Below are positions 3,928 to 63,641 of a DNA stretch of 64,000 bases, piece after piece. Each line of letters opens with the position of its first letter. Position 1 is the first letter of the stretch. The stretch is from a bacterium (GTDB lineage: Bacteria; Patescibacteriota; Minisyncoccia; Phycocordibacterales; JBBTRF01): positions 171,086 to 235,085 of the forward strand of contig JBAXTI010000001.1 of assembly GCA_037130265.1 (NCBI GenBank), written 5' to 3'. Made by a program: the position numbers and the translations under genes. Below the pieces are notes generated by a model. It did not search any database, was not told the origin of the DNA, and saw only the letters and a program-made list of their open reading frames with translations.

Positions 3928-4914
3928 ATGATTAACCCTCAGGAACAAGAGAAAGGGGCCCTGGAAGCAGCTCCGCTATCGGAACTCGAAGCGTTTCGAC
4001 GCAGTCGGCACGAACAGTGGAATACGCCCGCTGAGACTATCGAGTCTTTGGTGTTGAGGGCGACTGGCTCAGCATTGAACACGCAACGTAGGATTATTGG
4101 GGGTGAGACGAATGAGGTATATGAGGCGGTGACCGATTCTGGGCAGGAGGTTATTGTCCGTATTTCTCATGGCAAGAGAAATCGGTTTGAGAAAGAGCAG
4201 TGGGCGCTACAGCAGTGTGCGAAAGTGGGTGTGCCTGCGCCAGAAATGCTTTTGGTGGATAGTCTCAGTGTTGGTGGCAAGAATGTGTATGTTTGCGTTG
4301 AAACAAAGCTCCCTGGAGTGGGTTTGGATACAGTCCCCGTTAGTGAGAGGACTGGCATACTTCGTGAGCTCGGTGAACTGTTGGGTCGACTGCATTCGAT
4401 AAAGACTGAAGGGTTTGGTATTTTGGATAGTGAGGGACGAGGAAAATTTACGTCTGTACCGGAGTTGGTTATTGGTGACCATCAGGTTCATTTTCGAAAG
4501 ATCATCAACGCACTTGAGGGAAGAACGGAAGATATTTCGTGTCTTCAGGAAGCCTCAGCGATTTTAGAGAAAGAAGCGCAATCCCACGTGAAGGACGCGC
4601 CGTGCTTGGTGCACAATGACCTTTGTCCGCAACACGTTTTGGTCCATAATGGAAAGATTTCGGGAATCATCGACTTTGAGAGTGCACAAGGTGCCGATGC
4701 CTCAGTTGATTTTGGACGTTGGGAGATACGATATGGAAAGGACTACCCTTTGAACAGTATTGAAGAGGGATACGACCAAAGAAATGCGCACTTCTGGAAG
4801 ATGTATCGCACGTTTGGTAGTCTGCGATACTGCGTGGAACACAAAAAAGAGACAGGAATTACTGCGGCGATACAGGCAATACGAGAGTCGGCAGAGTTTT
4901 TGGCAAGGAAATAA
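3928..4914 (+). CDS. phosphotransferase (APH/choline-kinase-like) family protein
   Basis: LVHNDLCPQHVLV (HxDxxxxN catalytic loop) and IIDFESA (DFG-like DxE). Confidence 0.6.
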   Translation: MINPQEQEKGALEAAPLSELEAFRRSRHEQWNTPAETIESLVLRATGSALNTQRRIIGGETNEVYEAVTDSGQEVIVRISHGKRNRFEKEQWALQQCAKVGVPAPEMLLVDSLSVGGKNVYVCVETKLPGVGLDTVPVSERTGILRELGELLGRLHSIKTEGFGILDSEGRGKFTSVPELVIGDHQVHFRKIINALEGRTEDISCLQEASAILEKEAQSHVKDAPCLVHNDLCPQHVLVHNGKISGIIDFESAQGADASVDFGRWEIRYGKDYPLNSIEEGYDQRNAHFWKMYRTFGSLRYCVEHKKETGITAAIQAIRESAEFLARK

Positions 4915-20372: not shown

Positions 20373-21257
20373 ATGCAAAAGATGCGCGCTTTTCGAGGCG
20401 GCATTGTAGCGGCAATACTCTTCTTGCCGCTTTTTGCTTTGGCATACAAGAGCCCGGGTCAGCCGAATGGCTTTGTGAATGATTTTGCGAAGATACTCAC
20501 GGCCAATCAAGTGCTCGAATTGAACAAGGACTTGGCAGCATTTTCGTTGCAAGGTGAACAGAATGAAATCTCTGTGGTGACGGTGCCGACGCTCGGTGGC
20601 GATGATGTCGAAAGCTACTCTGCGAATCTGTTCAAAGAGTGGGGGATCGGCAAGGCTGAGAAGGATAACGGAGTTCTTCTTTTGATCGCGGTGGAGGATC
20701 GCAAGATGCGCATCGAAGTTGGATATGGTGCGGAGGCTTTACTTACCGATGCGCAAAGTGGAGCGATCGTTCGCAATATTTTGACACCCGCTTTTCGTTC
20801 TGGAGACTTCTATGGAGGTATTAACAAGGCCGTGCAGGAAATCGCCCGCGCGCTGAGTGGGGATGCGTCATCTGCTGTGCCGGAAGAGTCCCCGCGTTTT
20901 GCATTTTCACTGGAAAATATTCTTGGTTTCGGAGTATTTGTTGCTGTTTTTCTGGCAAGTATTCTCGGTGCCTCAAAATCTTGGTGGCTCGGCGGCGTGC
21001 TCGGTGCCATTGTCGGAGGAGTGATCACGTTTTTCGTCGGCTTCTTTTATTTCGGGTTGATCTCTATCGCAGTACTTGTGCCGCTCGGCCTCCTCTTTGA
21101 TTTCCTGGTTTCCCGCTCATATCAAAAGTCCATGTTGGCCACTGGCCTGCCTCCAGTGTGGCTCGGCGGTGGACGAGGTGGTTCTGGCGGGTCCGGCGGC
21201 TTCGGAGGATTTGGTGGTGGCGGATCGGGAGGTGGTGGGTCGAGTGGGAGTTGGTAG
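20373..21257 (+). CDS. TPM-domain protein (YgcG-like) with Gly-rich C-terminal tail
   Basis: GFVNDFAKILT ... LLLIAVEDRKMRIEVGYG TPM/YgcG pattern. C-terminal TM helices and GGSGG repeats. Classic partner of LemA. Confidence 0.7.
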   Translation: MQKMRAFRGGIVAAILFLPLFALAYKSPGQPNGFVNDFAKILTANQVLELNKDLAAFSLQGEQNEISVVTVPTLGGDDVESYSANLFKEWGIGKAEKDNGVLLLIAVEDRKMRIEVGYGAEALLTDAQSGAIVRNILTPAFRSGDFYGGINKAVQEIARALSGDASSAVPEESPRFAFSLENILGFGVFVAVFLASILGASKSWWLGGVLGAIVGGVITFFVGFFYFGLISIAVLVPLGLLFDFLVSRSYQKSMLATGLPPVWLGGGRGGSGGSGGFGGFGGGGSGGGGSSGSW

Positions 21258-21405
21258 CTGGGAATTCGAGGGAAAATGTTTGGATGCGGTAATTTCTCGC
21301 TAGAAATTTCCTAGTCCTCGACGACTACTCGTCTGCGGATATCCAAATATTTTTCCTCGAATTCCTTGTTCTGTGGTACTATCTTTTTGATAAGTAAATA
21401 AGATT

Positions 21406-31389: not shown

Positions 31390-31443
31390 TCCTCCAGAAG
31401 TAGAAATAAAAAGACACAGAAAAAATGTTGGTACATTTTTTCC

Positions 31444-31482
31444 TCCTCTCCGCGCCGTCGCGCTCCGAGAGGTCTTTTTATT
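31444..31482 (+). terminator. intrinsic terminator after nrdJ
   Basis: CCTCTC-cgcgccgtcgcgct-CCGAGAGG hairpin followed by TCTTTTTATTT. Confidence 0.5.
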
Positions 31483-31604
31483 TCGTCTTCTTCCGGTAAC
31501 AGTCGCGCCCCGCAGTTCCTCCGAAATGCTGTTTTGTATTTCCTACATATTTCGTTTGTCGGCAACCTTCATTTTGAAGGCCACATTTATTGTGAGAAAT
31601 ATTT

Positions 31605-31719
31605 GGACCCCCATGACAAAGACTGAGAGGGGACTCTCGCAGGCCGACGGGCCGAGATCTGAGTCGAAATCCTAGCAAGGATTTACGACGTGCCCCGATC
31701 AGTCTTTTTTATGGGGGTC
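31605..31719 (+). other. candidate structured RNA/element A (21-bp closing stem + conserved 72-nt interior)
   Basis: GGACCCCCATGACAAAGACTGA pairs with TCAGTCTTTTTTATGGGGGTC. Interior shares GAGGnACT...GGCCGACGGGCCGAG...TTTACGnCGTG with element B. Confidence 0.45.
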
Positions 31720-31756: not shown

Positions 31757-32182
31757 CACGTCCTTGCATTGAATGACTGCGCTTTTCGCAAGAAAAGTGA
31801 GGAAAGTCCGAACACTCGCCGGCTCCGTAAGGCGCCGGCAGCAAGGTAGCAGGTAACGCCTGTCCGATCTGTCGACTTTCGCAAAGGGATTCGTTCTTTT
31901 GAGAAGGTACGACAGCGAGAGGTGCGAACAGAGACGCCGGGCTTCGAAAGGGGCTTGGGACGTGAGCCGCAAGGCTTTCGTCAGTCCTCGCTGAAAGGCG
32001 AGGGGTGCAACGGCAAAATCCTTACCCGAGTGCAAGGCCGTACCATTCGGAGGCAGCAATGTTTCCGAGTAGGGGTGCCGCTTGAGCCGGGGAGCGATCC
32101 TTGGCCTAGATAAATGGTCATTCAGTCGGCGAGGCGCAAGCCGAGCCGGCGGACAGAATTCGGCTTATAGGTGCAGGACATA
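31757..32182 (+). ncRNA. rnpB: RNase P RNA (bacterial type)
   Basis: GAGGAAAGTCCG (P4 5' strand) at about 31797 and ACAGAATTCGGCTTAT (P4 3' strand) at about 32153. P1 pairing GTCCTTGCA/TGCAGGAC. Ends are approximate. Confidence 0.7.
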
Positions 32183-32186
32183 TGGA

Positions 32187-56886: not shown

Positions 56887-57519
56887 ATGAAGACGATTAC
56901 TTTCGGTGATGATCTGCTTGGTGTTGAGGATCTTGCTATGTCTCTCTACGGGCGCATTCCAAAACTGTGGAGGGAGATTTTCCCGTCCTGGTTTACCGTT
57001 GTGGTTAATCCATCGACGACATTCCGATCATTTGAGTCATTGCAGCCAACTCTCCGTGGGGTTAATTTTGACGCTCGCGAGATTTCAGAATGGGCTGAGA
57101 GAAGCGAAGACTGGCACTCTGTCCATGTCCTACTACAGCAGCCTGATGAAAAACGGGTCTGTTGGAACCTCTGGCTCAGACATTCGGATGATCGAGAGTA
57201 TCTCGCTCACGCCTTCCTTTCTACGGCCGCAGCGATCCTGTGGTGTGTGAACAGTCACTTGCGTGCCCAGTGGCGTATGGGGCTGGTCGGGAAGCGGATT
57301 CAACAGGTGGAGATCACTGACAAGAATGCCGATACCTTCTTTTGCGAGGCATTTGCGGATCGGGTGATCGAACCGAGGCGGTTTTTTTACCGCACATCAC
57401 CCGCATCTCAAGCCTTTGCTCTCATCGAGAAAAAGCTCGAGATGGGAGGTCTATTGCTCGATATTGACCCTGAATGGCTCGATGTCGATGGATTTCGAAA
57501 GGCACTTGCTACAGCTTGA
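56887..57519 (+). CDS. hypothetical protein
   Basis: 210-aa ORF. No motif. Confidence 0.4.
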   Translation: MKTITFGDDLLGVEDLAMSLYGRIPKLWREIFPSWFTVVVNPSTTFRSFESLQPTLRGVNFDAREISEWAERSEDWHSVHVLLQQPDEKRVCWNLWLRHSDDREYLAHAFLSTAAAILWCVNSHLRAQWRMGLVGKRIQQVEITDKNADTFFCEAFADRVIEPRRFFYRTSPASQAFALIEKKLEMGGLLLDIDPEWLDVDGFRKALATA

Positions 57520-57653
57520 TGTCCATGGGTATGCACGAACGGCGCGAGGCCAACAGCCTCCGCCGTTTTTAATTACACAAAATGTCTTTCTAAGTCGTTC
57601 GAAATATGTAAGAGACAGCAGAAAACACATTCAGAAGGAACTGCGGAGCGATA

Positions 57654-57759
57654 AAAAATCAAAAGACGTTTTCGAGGAACTGCGGAGGCCGACGGGCCGA
57701 GCCGGAGCAAAATTTCAGTAGAAATTTACGCGTGTCCGAGAAAACGTCTTTTGATTTTT
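57654..57759 (+). other. candidate structured RNA/element B (20-bp perfect closing stem + conserved 62-nt interior)
   Basis: AAAAATCAAAAGACGTTTTC pairs perfectly with GAAAACGTCTTTTGATTTTT. Interior homologous to element A and includes GGCCGACGGGCCGAG. Confidence 0.45.
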
Positions 57760-58975
57760 ACTTCTTCGATCGTCTCAAAAACGCCGGTACCGCACCCCAA
57801 TCATCATCCCCATCATCCGCAATGCTGGTCGCCCCTACCATTGGCTTCTTCTCCTCCGGAGCTTTGCTGTTGTTGATCGCCTCCTTCACAACACTTGCAA
57901 CATCGCGCTGTTCAACCTCCTTCTCTTTTGGCTTGCTGACAGCTGGAGTGCTGCTCATGGTGTTGAAAATCTTGCCCTTTGACTCATCGCCAAACAAGCT
58001 CTTCTTTGGAGTGCCGCCTGGCTCTGGGAAACCGGATGCGATAACAGTGATCTTAATCTCGTTCTTCTTGAGCTTCTCGTCTCGGACAGTACCGAAAATA
58101 ACCTTCGCATTTGGATCAATAGACTCGGTGATGACCTTTGCAGCATCCTGGATCTCGAACATGGTGAGATCGTCGCCGCCAGCGATAGAGAAGAGTACGC
58201 CCTTAGCGCCGTGAATAGAAATATCCAAAAGAGGGGAGTTGATCGCCATCTTTGCCGCTTCCTCTGCGCGCTTCTCGCCACTCGCTGTACCGATACCCAT
58301 GAGGGCTGAGCCGGCGTTATCGAGAATGGCTCGTACATCGGCGAAGTCGACGTTGATGATACCTGGTGTGGTGATCAAATCAGAAATACCTTCTACAGCC
58401 TGCTTGAGAATCTCATCAGACATCGCAAAAGCTTGTCGCGCGGTAGTGTCCTTGCTTGCAATGCTCAAAATACGGTCGTTTGGAATGACGATGAGTGCGT
58501 CGACAGACTTCTTGAGCTCATCGAGACCCTGCTCTGCGTGCTTCATACGCTGCTGACCTTCGAAGAAGAACGGCTTGGTGACCACGCCGATAGTGAGGAC
58601 GCCCATTTCCTTCGCGATCTTTGCTACGACAGGCGCAGCACCAGTACCGGTACCACCACCTTTACCACACGCAATGAAGACCATGTCTGAACCCTTGAGA
58701 GCTTCCTGGATTTCTTCCTTGGTTTCCTCTGCTGCACGCTTGCCGAGCTCTGGGTTCATGCCAGTGCCGAGGCCACGAGTGAGGTTTTTGCCAATGTGAA
58801 TCTTTTTCTTTGCGAGAGAGTTCTGGAGATCCTGGGCGTCAGTGTTTATCGCGATAAATTCAACCCCGCGCACCTTGGAGTTGACCATGTGGTTCACTGC
58901 GTTCTTGCCGGAACCGCCCACACCAATGACTTTGATGCGTGCGAATGCCTCTACTTCTGGGTTAATTTGGGCCAT
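57758..58975 (-). CDS. ftsZ: cell division GTPase FtsZ
   Basis: [17 protein letters not shown] and [13 protein letters not shown] tubulin/FtsZ signatures. Confidence 0.9.
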
Positions 58976-62245: not shown

Positions 62246-62839
62246 TTAGTTGGCAAAATGGGCGACTCCTGGCAGGAAATTGATTTTAGTTGGCGGCAAC
62301 AGGCGCAGTAATGGGCGGCCGACGATGTATTTTTCCTCGAGTGTGCCCCACGAGCGCGAATCCGAGCTCGCAGGGCGATTGTCGCCGAGGACGAAGTATT
62401 CGTTTGGACCGAGCGTCTTCTTCATGCTGTCGAGTGAGTGATTGGCGACGTACGGCTCTTCCAATACGATCGGTTCAGCGCTCGTGCTGTTACGAATTGA
62501 AACTTTGCCGTATTGAATTTCGACCGTTTCGCCAGGAAGGCCAATGAGGCGCTTGATATAGTAACGCTTTGCTTCGGTTGGAGCAGTGTATGGATACTGA
62601 AAGACGAGCACTTCGCCTCGCTGCGGATCGCGGAAATGATACGAGAGCTCGTCGACGATGAGATATTGTCCGGTAGCGAACGTTGGATCCATTGATGGTC
62701 CGTTCACAACGAACGGTTTGGCAACGAAGACGCGAATCGGGAGGACGATGAGGAGGGTGATGAGAACGAATCTCCACAATTCAGAAAAAGATCGTTTTAA
62801 CGATGATGGTTCTGTAACTTGTGTATCGAGATTGGTCAT
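62246..62839 (-). CDS. lepB: signal peptidase I
   Basis: VVNGPSMDPT (Ser box) and GDNRPASSDSRSWG (box E). Start at internal ATG. Confidence 0.75.
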   Translation of the reverse strand: MTNLDTQVTEPSSLKRSFSELWRFVLITLLIVLPIRVFVAKPFVVNGPSMDPTFATGQYLIVDELSYHFRDPQRGEVLVFQYPYTAPTEAKRYYIKRLIGLPGETVEIQYGKVSIRNSTSAEPIVLEEPYVANHSLDSMKKTLGPNEYFVLGDNRPASSDSRSWGTLEEKYIVGRPLLRLLPPTKINFLPGVAHFAN

Positions 62840-63014
62840 TGCAAGCAATTTTACCGCGGGCGAGTGAGTTGACGCAAGAGCAAAATGCATGTCGCATCGT
62901 TTCTTTTGCAATTTACGAGCAAGAATTTTGCGATGAATGATTTTTTGCGCGCTCGCGCCGTCGCTCGCGCGCCTTTTTGCATCGCTTCTACTCGCGTGCT
63001 ACACTTTTTCCAAC

Positions 63015-63641
63015 ATGACATACATTATTGCAGGTCTCGGCAACCCCGGAATGGAGTACAAGGAGACGCGACACAATATTGGCCGCATGGTAGCTGATGC
63101 GTTTGTGAAAAAGCACGGTTTGCCTGAGCTTGAGGCCGACAAAATGCTCAAGGCGCTTGCTTGCGAAGGGAAGATCGAGGGTGCGCACGCACTCACTGGC
63201 AAGGTGAAGAAGGAAAAGGTGGTGGTACTCGAGCCTGAGACGTTTATGAACAAGTCGGGTGAGTCGGTGGCGAAGGTGGTGAAGAGCAAGAAGGCGGCCG
63301 AGCAGCTCGTGGTCATCCACGATGACCTCGACTTACCGCTCGGCCGTCTCAAGGTATCATTCAACAAGAGCTCTGGCGGACACCGTGGCGTGGAGTCGGT
63401 GATCAAGGCAGTGAAGACTCAGGAATTCATCCGACTGCGCATCGGGATCACTCCAGCGACTGCCGGCGGCAAGCTGAAGAAGCCCGAAGGCGAGGACCTC
63501 ATCAACGATTTTATCGTCGCCGACTTTAAAAAGCCCGAAGCGGAGACGTTGAAGAAAGTTATCAAGACCGCCGTCGATGCACTCGATTGTATTATTCTGT
63601 CTGGGCGGGACGCAGCGATGGGAAGCTTTAATTCGCTGTAA
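63015..63641 (+). CDS. pth: peptidyl-tRNA hydrolase
   Basis: IIAGLGNPGMEYKETRHNIG Pth signature. Start at internal ATG. Confidence 0.8.
   Translation: MTYIIAGLGNPGMEYKETRHNIGRMVADAFVKKHGLPELEADKMLKALACEGKIEGAHALTGKVKKEKVVVLEPETFMNKSGESVAKVVKSKKAAEQLVVIHDDLDLPLGRLKVSFNKSSGGHRGVESVIKAVKTQEFIRLRIGITPATAGGKLKKPEGEDLINDFIVADFKKPEAETLKKVIKTAVDALDCIILSGRDAAMGSFNSL

Follow-up and report, generated by a model that had tools for sequence, protein, structure and literature searches.

The RPEs of Rickettsia are palindromic sequences of about 100-150 bp that form long stem-loops, are present in many copies per reduced genome, and reside between genes as well as in frame within functional, conserved genes (PMC2229807). 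They have also been reported inside the RNase P RNA (PMC2229807). In their behaviour, the RPEs are the closest known analogue of the palindrome described here, element B, which lies at the 3' end of ftsZ in the window, the whole stretch of 64,000 nucleotides that was analysed. With 106 nt and a stem of 20-25 bp, B falls within the range of about 105-146 bp expected of such a palindromic unit. It is itself intergenic, and other copies of its family are found between genes and in frame in TsaD, UvrD, DnaE, PGM and MiaA. RPE copies, however, are homologous over their whole length and belong to one genus, whereas here only a core is conserved and the spread within the CPR (Patescibacteria) is at phylum level. 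Since the hosts of the family are Patescibacteria, the relation to RPEs is one of analogy and not of membership, and the likeness rests on behaviour rather than on sequence.

The MITEs (Correia/NEMIS, ERIC, RUP) are similarly short and non-autonomous, with inverted-repeat ends, long hairpin transcripts and a mostly intergenic location, some of their open reading frames (ORFs) being fused to genes. Their terminal repeats, however, are conserved within a family and come from an insertion sequence, and their target duplications are often TA. Here, the arms of the four copies in the window (A, B, C and D) and of the copies after ftsZ in the related genomes L119 and L120 are unrelated to one another, only one subfamily having arms in common, and no target-site duplication flanks B, A, C, D or the copy of L160. 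In one subfamily, GCGAGC flanks the element left and right; since the copies of that subfamily have it in common, it does not represent a target duplication. What does recall a MITE is the dispersal of the copies (four in 64 kb) and their presence or absence between relatives (three of six after ftsZ). Because the arms differ between copies, the element stands outside the usual MITE definition, and ordinary cut-or-copy transposition provides no explanation for it.

The REP/BIME sequences are also short, multicopy extragenic palindromes, often located at gene 3' ends. A domesticated HUH enzyme (RAYT) recognises REPs in the form of folded single strands, and they have host roles in termination and mRNA stability. 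A REP is nevertheless a simple hairpin of 20-40 nt, with a conserved 5' tetranucleotide, and is strictly extragenic; the element described here is branched, three to five times longer and also genic. Another group of palindromes, the attC sites of integrons, are variable, imperfect, 57-141 bp in length and positioned directly after ORFs; they are recognised through their structure, in which the single-stranded DNA is folded and conserved bases remain unpaired. The conserved boxes of attC (RYYYAAC/GTTRRRY) occupy the stem base, with a variable apex; here the arrangement is reversed, the apex being conserved and the base variable. The arms of B are devoid of R''/R' boxes, and the copies are scattered among housekeeping genes, 26-36 kb apart, without a cassette array.

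Element B at the 3' end of ftsZ

The palindrome and its immediate surroundings comprise the following features.

57654-57759, + strand (that of the purine-rich conserved core): element B, whole palindromic unit, 106 nt
57654-57673, + strand: left arm of B, AAAAATCAAAAGACGTTTTC, forming a perfect 20-bp duplex with the right arm
57674-57675, + strand: GA opposite GA 57738-57739, a tandem G.A/A.G mismatch
57676-57737, + strand: conserved core of B, a three-way junction (P2, P3/P3a, P4a/P4b); covariance model 62.3 bits, E = 1e-16
57687-57698, + strand: hairpin P3a, GGCC-GACG-GGCC, with GGA before and GAG after
57710-57727, + strand: hairpin P4b, AAATTTC-AGTA-GAAATTT, whose stem covaries freely across the family
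57740-57759, + strand: right arm of B, GAAAACGTCTTTTGATTTTT, T-rich, the last 2 nt overlapping the ftsZ stop codon
57622-57648, + strand: truncated, diverged copy of the inner left arm and core start, beside B (21/27 nt match)
57758-58975, - strand: ftsZ, 405 aa, Tubulin and FtsZ_C domains, transcribed towards B
56887-57519, + strand: convergent ORF, 210 aa, without Pfam match

The initial annotation had described B as a perfect 20-bp stem with a core homologous to that of another element, A, and a right arm overlapping the ftsZ stop codon; all of this was borne out. Positions 57654-57673 pair with 57740-57759, and perfect 20-bp inverted repeats with a spacer of at most 100 nt are expected by chance, on an estimate made here, about 6e-6 times in 64 kb. 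The tandem G.A/A.G mismatch is also present in A and in many family members, and beyond it the helix of B resumes with GGA/TCC, giving arms of 25 nt that are 92% complementary. The 62-nt core of B has in common with A the exact stretch GGCCGACGGGCCGAG, and a covariance model of the core gives 74.3 bits for A and 62.3 bits for B. The fold energy of B is -46.2 kcal/mol (z = -6.0), none of 200 shuffles folding as well, and B is more stable than shuffled sequence whichever strand is folded. The overlap with the stop codon, a TAA at 57758-57760 on the minus strand, amounts to 2 nt.

The orientation of the locus had to be corrected. B had been placed downstream of a + strand gene, but ftsZ is encoded on the minus strand; B is therefore located between convergent genes, with its core antisense to ftsZ. 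As ftsZ is transcribed towards B, its transcript would carry the reverse complement of B at its extreme 3' end. FtsZ is complete, with the usual PAFLRR tail readable at its C-terminus, and its closest named homologues belong to Taylorbacteria, Paceibacteria and Parcubacteria, which, like the divergent RNase P RNA described below, marks the host as a bacterium of the CPR. The identical locus also occurs on a metagenome contig of 368 kb. The convergent 210-aa ORF has a terminator-like hairpin of its own at 57546-57560, followed by a T run.

An additional partial copy of the core start, reported earlier, does exist, but not some 80 nt upstream of B as had been claimed. Its 12-mer GGAACTGCGGAG is found without mismatch at 57637-57648 and again at 57676-57687. 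The partial copy adjoins the left arm on the upstream side, 39 nt before its counterpart in the core. The corresponding direct repeat extends over 27 nt (57622-57648 against 57661-57687) with 78% identity.

Other copies in the window

A and B had been regarded as a two-member pair of RNA elements on the + strand. This proposal is not tenable: BLAST, pattern and covariance model searches detected in the window a total of four copies and two truncated fragments, and the two further copies, C and D, lie in the opposite orientation. The copies other than B, and the fragment beside C, are listed below.

31606-31719, + strand: element A, core 31630-31695, 74.3 bits, between copy C and the RNase P RNA gene
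31396-31491, - strand: element C, core 31412-31475, 57.5 bits, opposite in orientation to A and B
31500-31522, - strand: truncated core fragment GGAACTGCGGGGCGCGACTG beside C, with the same motif as the fragment beside B
21261-21365, - strand: element D, core 21282-21344, 22.6 bits, E = 1.4e-4, a diverged copy

BLAST and pattern searches recovered A and C, while D was found only later, by the covariance model. In the one genome seen here, the density is thus about one copy per 16 kb. C begins 7 nt past the stop codon of a class II ribonucleotide reductase gene, to which its core is antisense, and D lies 3 nt past the stop codon of the ORF 20373-21257 (+) and has the loops GUAG and AGCG. In B, C and D alike, the core is antisense to the abutted gene. 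The pairing of A with B is also contradicted by the size of the family, which has well over a hundred members in Patescibacteria, placed in either orientation and for some of them in coding sequences. Copies in either orientation and inside coding sequences argue against a simple, orientation-specific 3'-UTR RNA.

Several minor observations were made in the same region. Truncated 5' core copies (GGAACTGCGGRGCG...) are found just outside the left arm of both B (57622-57648, +) and C (31500-31522, -); they may be remnants of older copies, or traces of the replacement of an old copy by a new one. A weak model match at 62921-62975 (-), with 12.9 bits and E = 0.12, contains GAGCGACGGCGCGAGCG and sits at the boundary of the ORFs 62246-62911 (-) and 62937-63641 (+); it may correspond to a degraded fifth copy. 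The four copies of the window are split 2/2 between the strands, so that no replication-strand bias is visible at this sample size; GC skew is positive over the whole window, and eight tRNA genes are scattered singly through the 64 kb. The RNase P RNA (bacterial class A; 31760-32183, +) begins 40 nt downstream of element A. It is divergent, scoring 86.4 bits against a Rfam gathering score of 100, and carries large insertions (49 nt where the model has 8) as well as extra sequence near its 3' end. Within this RNA, the covariance model of the element gives only insignificant matches, of 9.8 and 6.7 bits.

A family of palindromic elements in Patescibacteria

One genome per species was searched with a degenerate pattern that fits A, B and C, giving 116 matches. 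Most of these were discarded as chance matches in GC-rich coding DNA, scoring below 25 bits with the model, and the genome assemblies contain about 25 clear homologues. Where the depositor assigned the host to a lineage, it belongs to the Saccharibacteria, Microgenomates, Kaiser-, Nomura-, Vogel- or Paceibacteria, all of them Patescibacteria, with the exception of four assemblies labelled Pseudomonadales, a name that is a depositor label only. A second pattern, applied to metagenomes, returned at least 120 loci; the first 100 of them were run through the model and gave at least 115 matches, some of these copies being additional to those that the pattern required. In all, the covariance model built from the core gathers more than 140 copies.

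In Rfam 15, no family matches the elements when the whole window is searched at the gathering score, and at E up to 10 the loci of B and A return only spurious microRNA and snoRNA hairpins. The literature searched, most subscription journals being outside its scope, describes no CPR element of this kind, and the family is apparently undescribed. Carriage by phages was also considered and rejected: 20 viral contigs match a 19-nt pattern, none of them with a full-length element, and the best scores 29 bits.

The units have a median size of about 113 nt, with about 24 outer pairs, and range from about 90 to 165 bp. The outer stem is long and near-perfect and, with the exception of the subfamily with common arms, its sequence differs from copy to copy. 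At the inner end of this stem there is often the tandem G.A/A.G. The core of 60-65 nt comprises the short helix P2 and a three-way junction. One branch of this junction is made of a 3-bp P3, an internal loop (GSA opposite GA) and a hairpin GSSC-GACG-GSSC; the other consists of a 3-bp P4a and a 7-bp hairpin, separated by a bulged A, and the loop of this hairpin is in most cases AGCA. Short, conserved strands (U, NGA and GUR) link the helices at the junction.

The pairing is strongly supported across 112 distinct sequences. Standard pairs are formed in 96.1% of cells, against 61% in shuffled sequences and 35-53% with slid partners, and in 18 of the 20 pairs both partners vary. The sequences were aligned by fitting them to the model, and the search patterns had partly constrained two loops and one stem; P2, P3, P4a and P4b, on which no such constraint acted, account for most of the covariation. 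The otherwise near-identical cores of L180 (4813-4949), L147 (8509-8624) and L160 provide an additional view, as they differ at almost every position of the P4b stem with full compensation. In these three, the core stems evolve much faster than the unpaired bases.

Copies inside genes

Seventeen copies are located well inside ORFs of at least 200 aa, and all of them are read through in frame without stops, ten with the core in sense and seven in antisense. Only ORFs of this length were scored as genic because the crude ORF caller made spurious short ORFs over the elements. The Pfam check covered 10 of the 17 genic copies, and the domains flanking the insertion on both sides are those of TsaD (two copies), phosphoglucomutase, PGM (two), UvrD (two), DnaE, MiaA and a class V aminotransferase. 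Compared with shuffles, stop-free frames are in excess both in intergenic copies (2.1 against 1.15) and in genic ones (3.6 against 1.4).

The clearest view of an insertion is offered by the TsaD of L160. Its alignment with the solved Salmonella TsaD reveals a clean insertion of 36 aa between residues 191 and 192, which corresponds to the whole 111-nt palindrome with its arms and has no flanking duplication. This copy refutes the idea that the arms are derived from the host, by insertion of the core into a pre-existing terminator hairpin. Since the entire palindrome was inserted, the arms belong to the element and were not borrowed.

No frame-breaking insertion was found among the ten co-directional ORF pairs that abut an element. 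The possibility that such pairs are genes split by the element was rejected, as in 10 of 10 cases the two genes are separate and complete, for example phosphoketolase and acetate kinase, FtsW and MurG, or S15 and a NYN-domain protein.

Spread and persistence of the copies

Some copies have the appearance of recent multiplication. One subfamily consists of near-identical copies with the same arms, three of them in one MAG and more in other assemblies. In L231, three copies follow one another in tandem at 4266-4602 (-), about every 135 nt; each copy is bounded by long arms of its own, and the intervening spacers are repeated as well.

Other copies are shared by distant relatives. The UvrD proteins of L180 and L147, which are 70% identical, carry the element at the same site with an inverted core, and recombination between inverted arms would yield exactly such a flipped core. 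Two TsaD proteins with an identity of only 48% agree in the site, the frame and the orientation of the element. Likewise, the copy after ftsZ, present in three of the six related genomes, has an unchanged orientation in L119 and L120, relatives with FtsZ identities of 81% and 79%, its arms there being unrelated in sequence to those of B. This pattern fits either ancient insertions whose arms turn over and yet stay complementary, or insertion hot spots. The conservation of the core across phylum-level lineages, together with the shared site in TsaD, reveals more persistence than would be expected of junk DNA and hints at a host function.

The surroundings of one pair of copies differ. MurG ORFs of the same length and with the same Pfam scores follow the element in L132 (1781-1905) and in L206 (1831-1961), and the gene upstream of it is FtsW in one locus but RNase HII in the other; the element may point to a rearrangement breakpoint there.

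Strand and orientation

The core contains 1997 Watson-Crick pairs, 38 G.U and 33 A.C in about 2100 cells. An RNA would accept G.U far more readily than A.C. The near-pure Watson-Crick pairing of the core is thus unlike that of a typical RNA, and is as would result from a duplex-symmetric or DNA-level constraint. Where local transcription can be deduced, the core is in sense in 30 cases and in antisense in 33, a random distribution. No sigma-70-like promoter site adjoins A, B, C or D, although CPR promoters may be of another kind. Taken together, the purity of the pairing, the random orientation and the lack of flanking promoter-like sites beside the copies of the window argue against an ordinary, strand-specific RNA.

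The arms tell a different story. On the core-sense strand they contain 61 G.U against 22 A.C, and the ratio is 20 to 3 when the core is in sense to transcription but 8 to 6 when it is in antisense. This asymmetry makes some selection at the RNA level likely. In addition, the bases that are conserved and unpaired are purines, and only one of the two strands offers a stable tandem G.A. As far as the sequences can tell, one of the strands does fold, be it as RNA, as single-stranded DNA or in both forms.

Probable termination at the ftsZ locus

B resembles a bidirectional terminator by its strong stem, its position between convergent genes and its location in the slot that is occupied by a simple terminator-like hairpin in relatives. 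An A run precedes the stem and a T run follows it on both strands (3' arm and flank, UUUUGAUUUUU), and the stem begins at the ftsZ stop codon itself. Three relatives with an FtsZ 78% identical are devoid of the element. In its place, L121 has a plain A/T-flanked hairpin after ftsZ, L122 has no intergenic spacer, and L123 has a short hairpin and a T run on the strand of the convergent gene. From this sequence context, B probably serves also as a bidirectional intrinsic terminator and as a 3'-end stabiliser of ftsZ and of the convergent ORF.

The differences concern the loop and the family as a whole. Terminator loops have 3-8 nt, whereas the 'loop' of B is a conserved three-way junction of 62 nt; a terminator scan did not call B because its loop exceeds 8 nt. 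Across the family, T-rich 3' arms outnumber A-rich ones by 68 to 34, and by 35 to 6 for runs of at least 6, but clearly T-rich ends are present in only about one third of the intergenic copies. Termination cannot be what the family is for, since many of its copies have no T-rich ends or are located within ORFs.

Nature of the element

On balance, B is best read as a copy of a palindromic repeat family of the Patescibacteria, selfish or semi-domesticated and comparable to the RPEs, which in the case of B likely acts as a terminator too; this reading is held with a confidence somewhat above even. The family behaves like selfish, non-autonomous DNA, with several copies per genome and some recently multiplied subfamilies, and its elements occupy tight intergenic gaps, face either way and are inserted in frame and without stops in conserved protein genes. 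It would be by the structure of the core that a trans-acting enzyme recognises the folded single strand, in the simplest case single-stranded DNA, at the time when the element is copied or kept. The arms would stay complementary, through arm-to-arm correction or through selection, while their sequence drifts, and recombination from arm to arm could flip the core.

A functional structured RNA is an unlikely though substantial competitor. Acting in cis or in trans, it might for example bind a protein or, in 3' UTRs and intercistronic spacers, govern RNase III processing and stability. The long stem would then serve for processing or termination, the function itself would reside in the junction, and B would be either a regulator in the ftsZ 3' UTR or a convergent small RNA gene. 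The very strong covariation combined with conserved unpaired purines (GSA, GACG, GA, AGCA and the bulged A) is the classic signature of such an RNA, and the recurrence of a strand-specific tandem G.A, the excess of G.U over A.C in the arms of the core-sense strand, the many copies that start a few nucleotides from a stop codon and fill the whole intergenic spacer, and the conservation of the element at the 3' end of ftsZ in relatives all speak for it. It is harder to reconcile with core helices that avoid G.U as much as A.C (38 against 33), with a random orientation (30 to 33) that leaves the cores of B, C and D antisense to the abutted gene, with coding-sequence copies in both orientations, and with the lack of promoter-like sites beside A, B, C and D and of any Rfam match. 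Near-pure Watson-Crick pairing on both strands and an orientation independent of transcription are easier to understand for a host-domesticated site at the DNA level, similar to the enterobacterial REP/BIME and kept at numerous points of the chromosome for the maintenance of the latter rather than for its own spread. In its folded or cruciform state, the site would be the target of a conserved housekeeping protein, for instance gyrase, a nucleoid protein, a junction-binding enzyme or a lagging-strand priming factor. The conservation of the core across CPR phyla, the same sites in diverged TsaD and UvrD and the viral contigs without full-length copies agree with this idea. Insertions in the middle of essential enzymes are nevertheless hard to picture as selected, tandem arrays and recently multiplied subfamilies resemble selfish spread, the strand-specific tandem G.A and purine-rich loops would be unneeded for binding to a duplex, and no binding protein is known; a site of this type is accordingly judged rather improbable.

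Least credible by far is an intron-like element excised from RNA, in which the stem would juxtapose the exon ends and RNase III or a ribozyme in the core would cut before ligation. The long perfect stem does bring the flanks together, the three-way junction with invariant unpaired bases resembles those of small ribozymes, some copies reside in essential genes, and CPR bacteria carry unusual rRNA insertions. Efficient splicing, however, would not need all 17 genic copies to be in frame and stop-free, with the 10 candidate pairs unsplit, and a strand-specific ribozyme could not tolerate genic copies in both orientations. There is also no match to a ribozyme or an intron in Rfam at E up to 10. 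A comparison by eye with the consensus sequences of the hammerhead, twister, pistol and hatchet ribozymes and of the K-turn likewise spoke against these motifs, as the junction strands (AC-U, NGA and GUR) are a misfit. Rather doubtful as well, but more ambitious than the preferred reading of a selfish or semi-domesticated repeat, is the idea that the element represents a CPR-wide functional folded nucleic acid with a dedicated, conserved partner, and is thus more than selfish DNA. It could possibly take the form of a structure-defined mobility or maintenance system for single-stranded DNA, or of a new small ribozyme or RNA-processing module. The perfect arms and the invariant three-way junction would in that event be actively kept, even inside essential genes, across phylum-level divergence.

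The genomes of Patescibacteria are tiny and streamlined and are thought to hold few mobile elements. Despite this streamlining, there is about one copy per 16 kb here, the family is common in metagenomes and some of its copies are located in essential enzymes. If the preferred reading of a selfish or semi-domesticated repeat is true, the family would constitute a second, independent case of selfish DNA within protein-coding genes, a situation best known so far from Rickettsia. It would also supply an annotation marker explaining odd insertions of 30-50 aa in CPR proteins and long hairpins at gene ends. The puzzle of an invariant branched core amid perfect arms that are specific to each copy would then point to an enzyme or to a correction process in the CPR.

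Gene order around ftsZ

The slot between ftsZ and a thioredoxin-reductase-like gene varies, each relative having a different small gene there, or none. In the window it is occupied by the 210-aa ORF, in L121 by a DUF6915 protein and in L123 by an ORF of 111 aa; no gene is present there in L119 and L120. This slot is a variable spot within the otherwise conserved synteny ybeY-ftsA-ftsZ-...-trxB.
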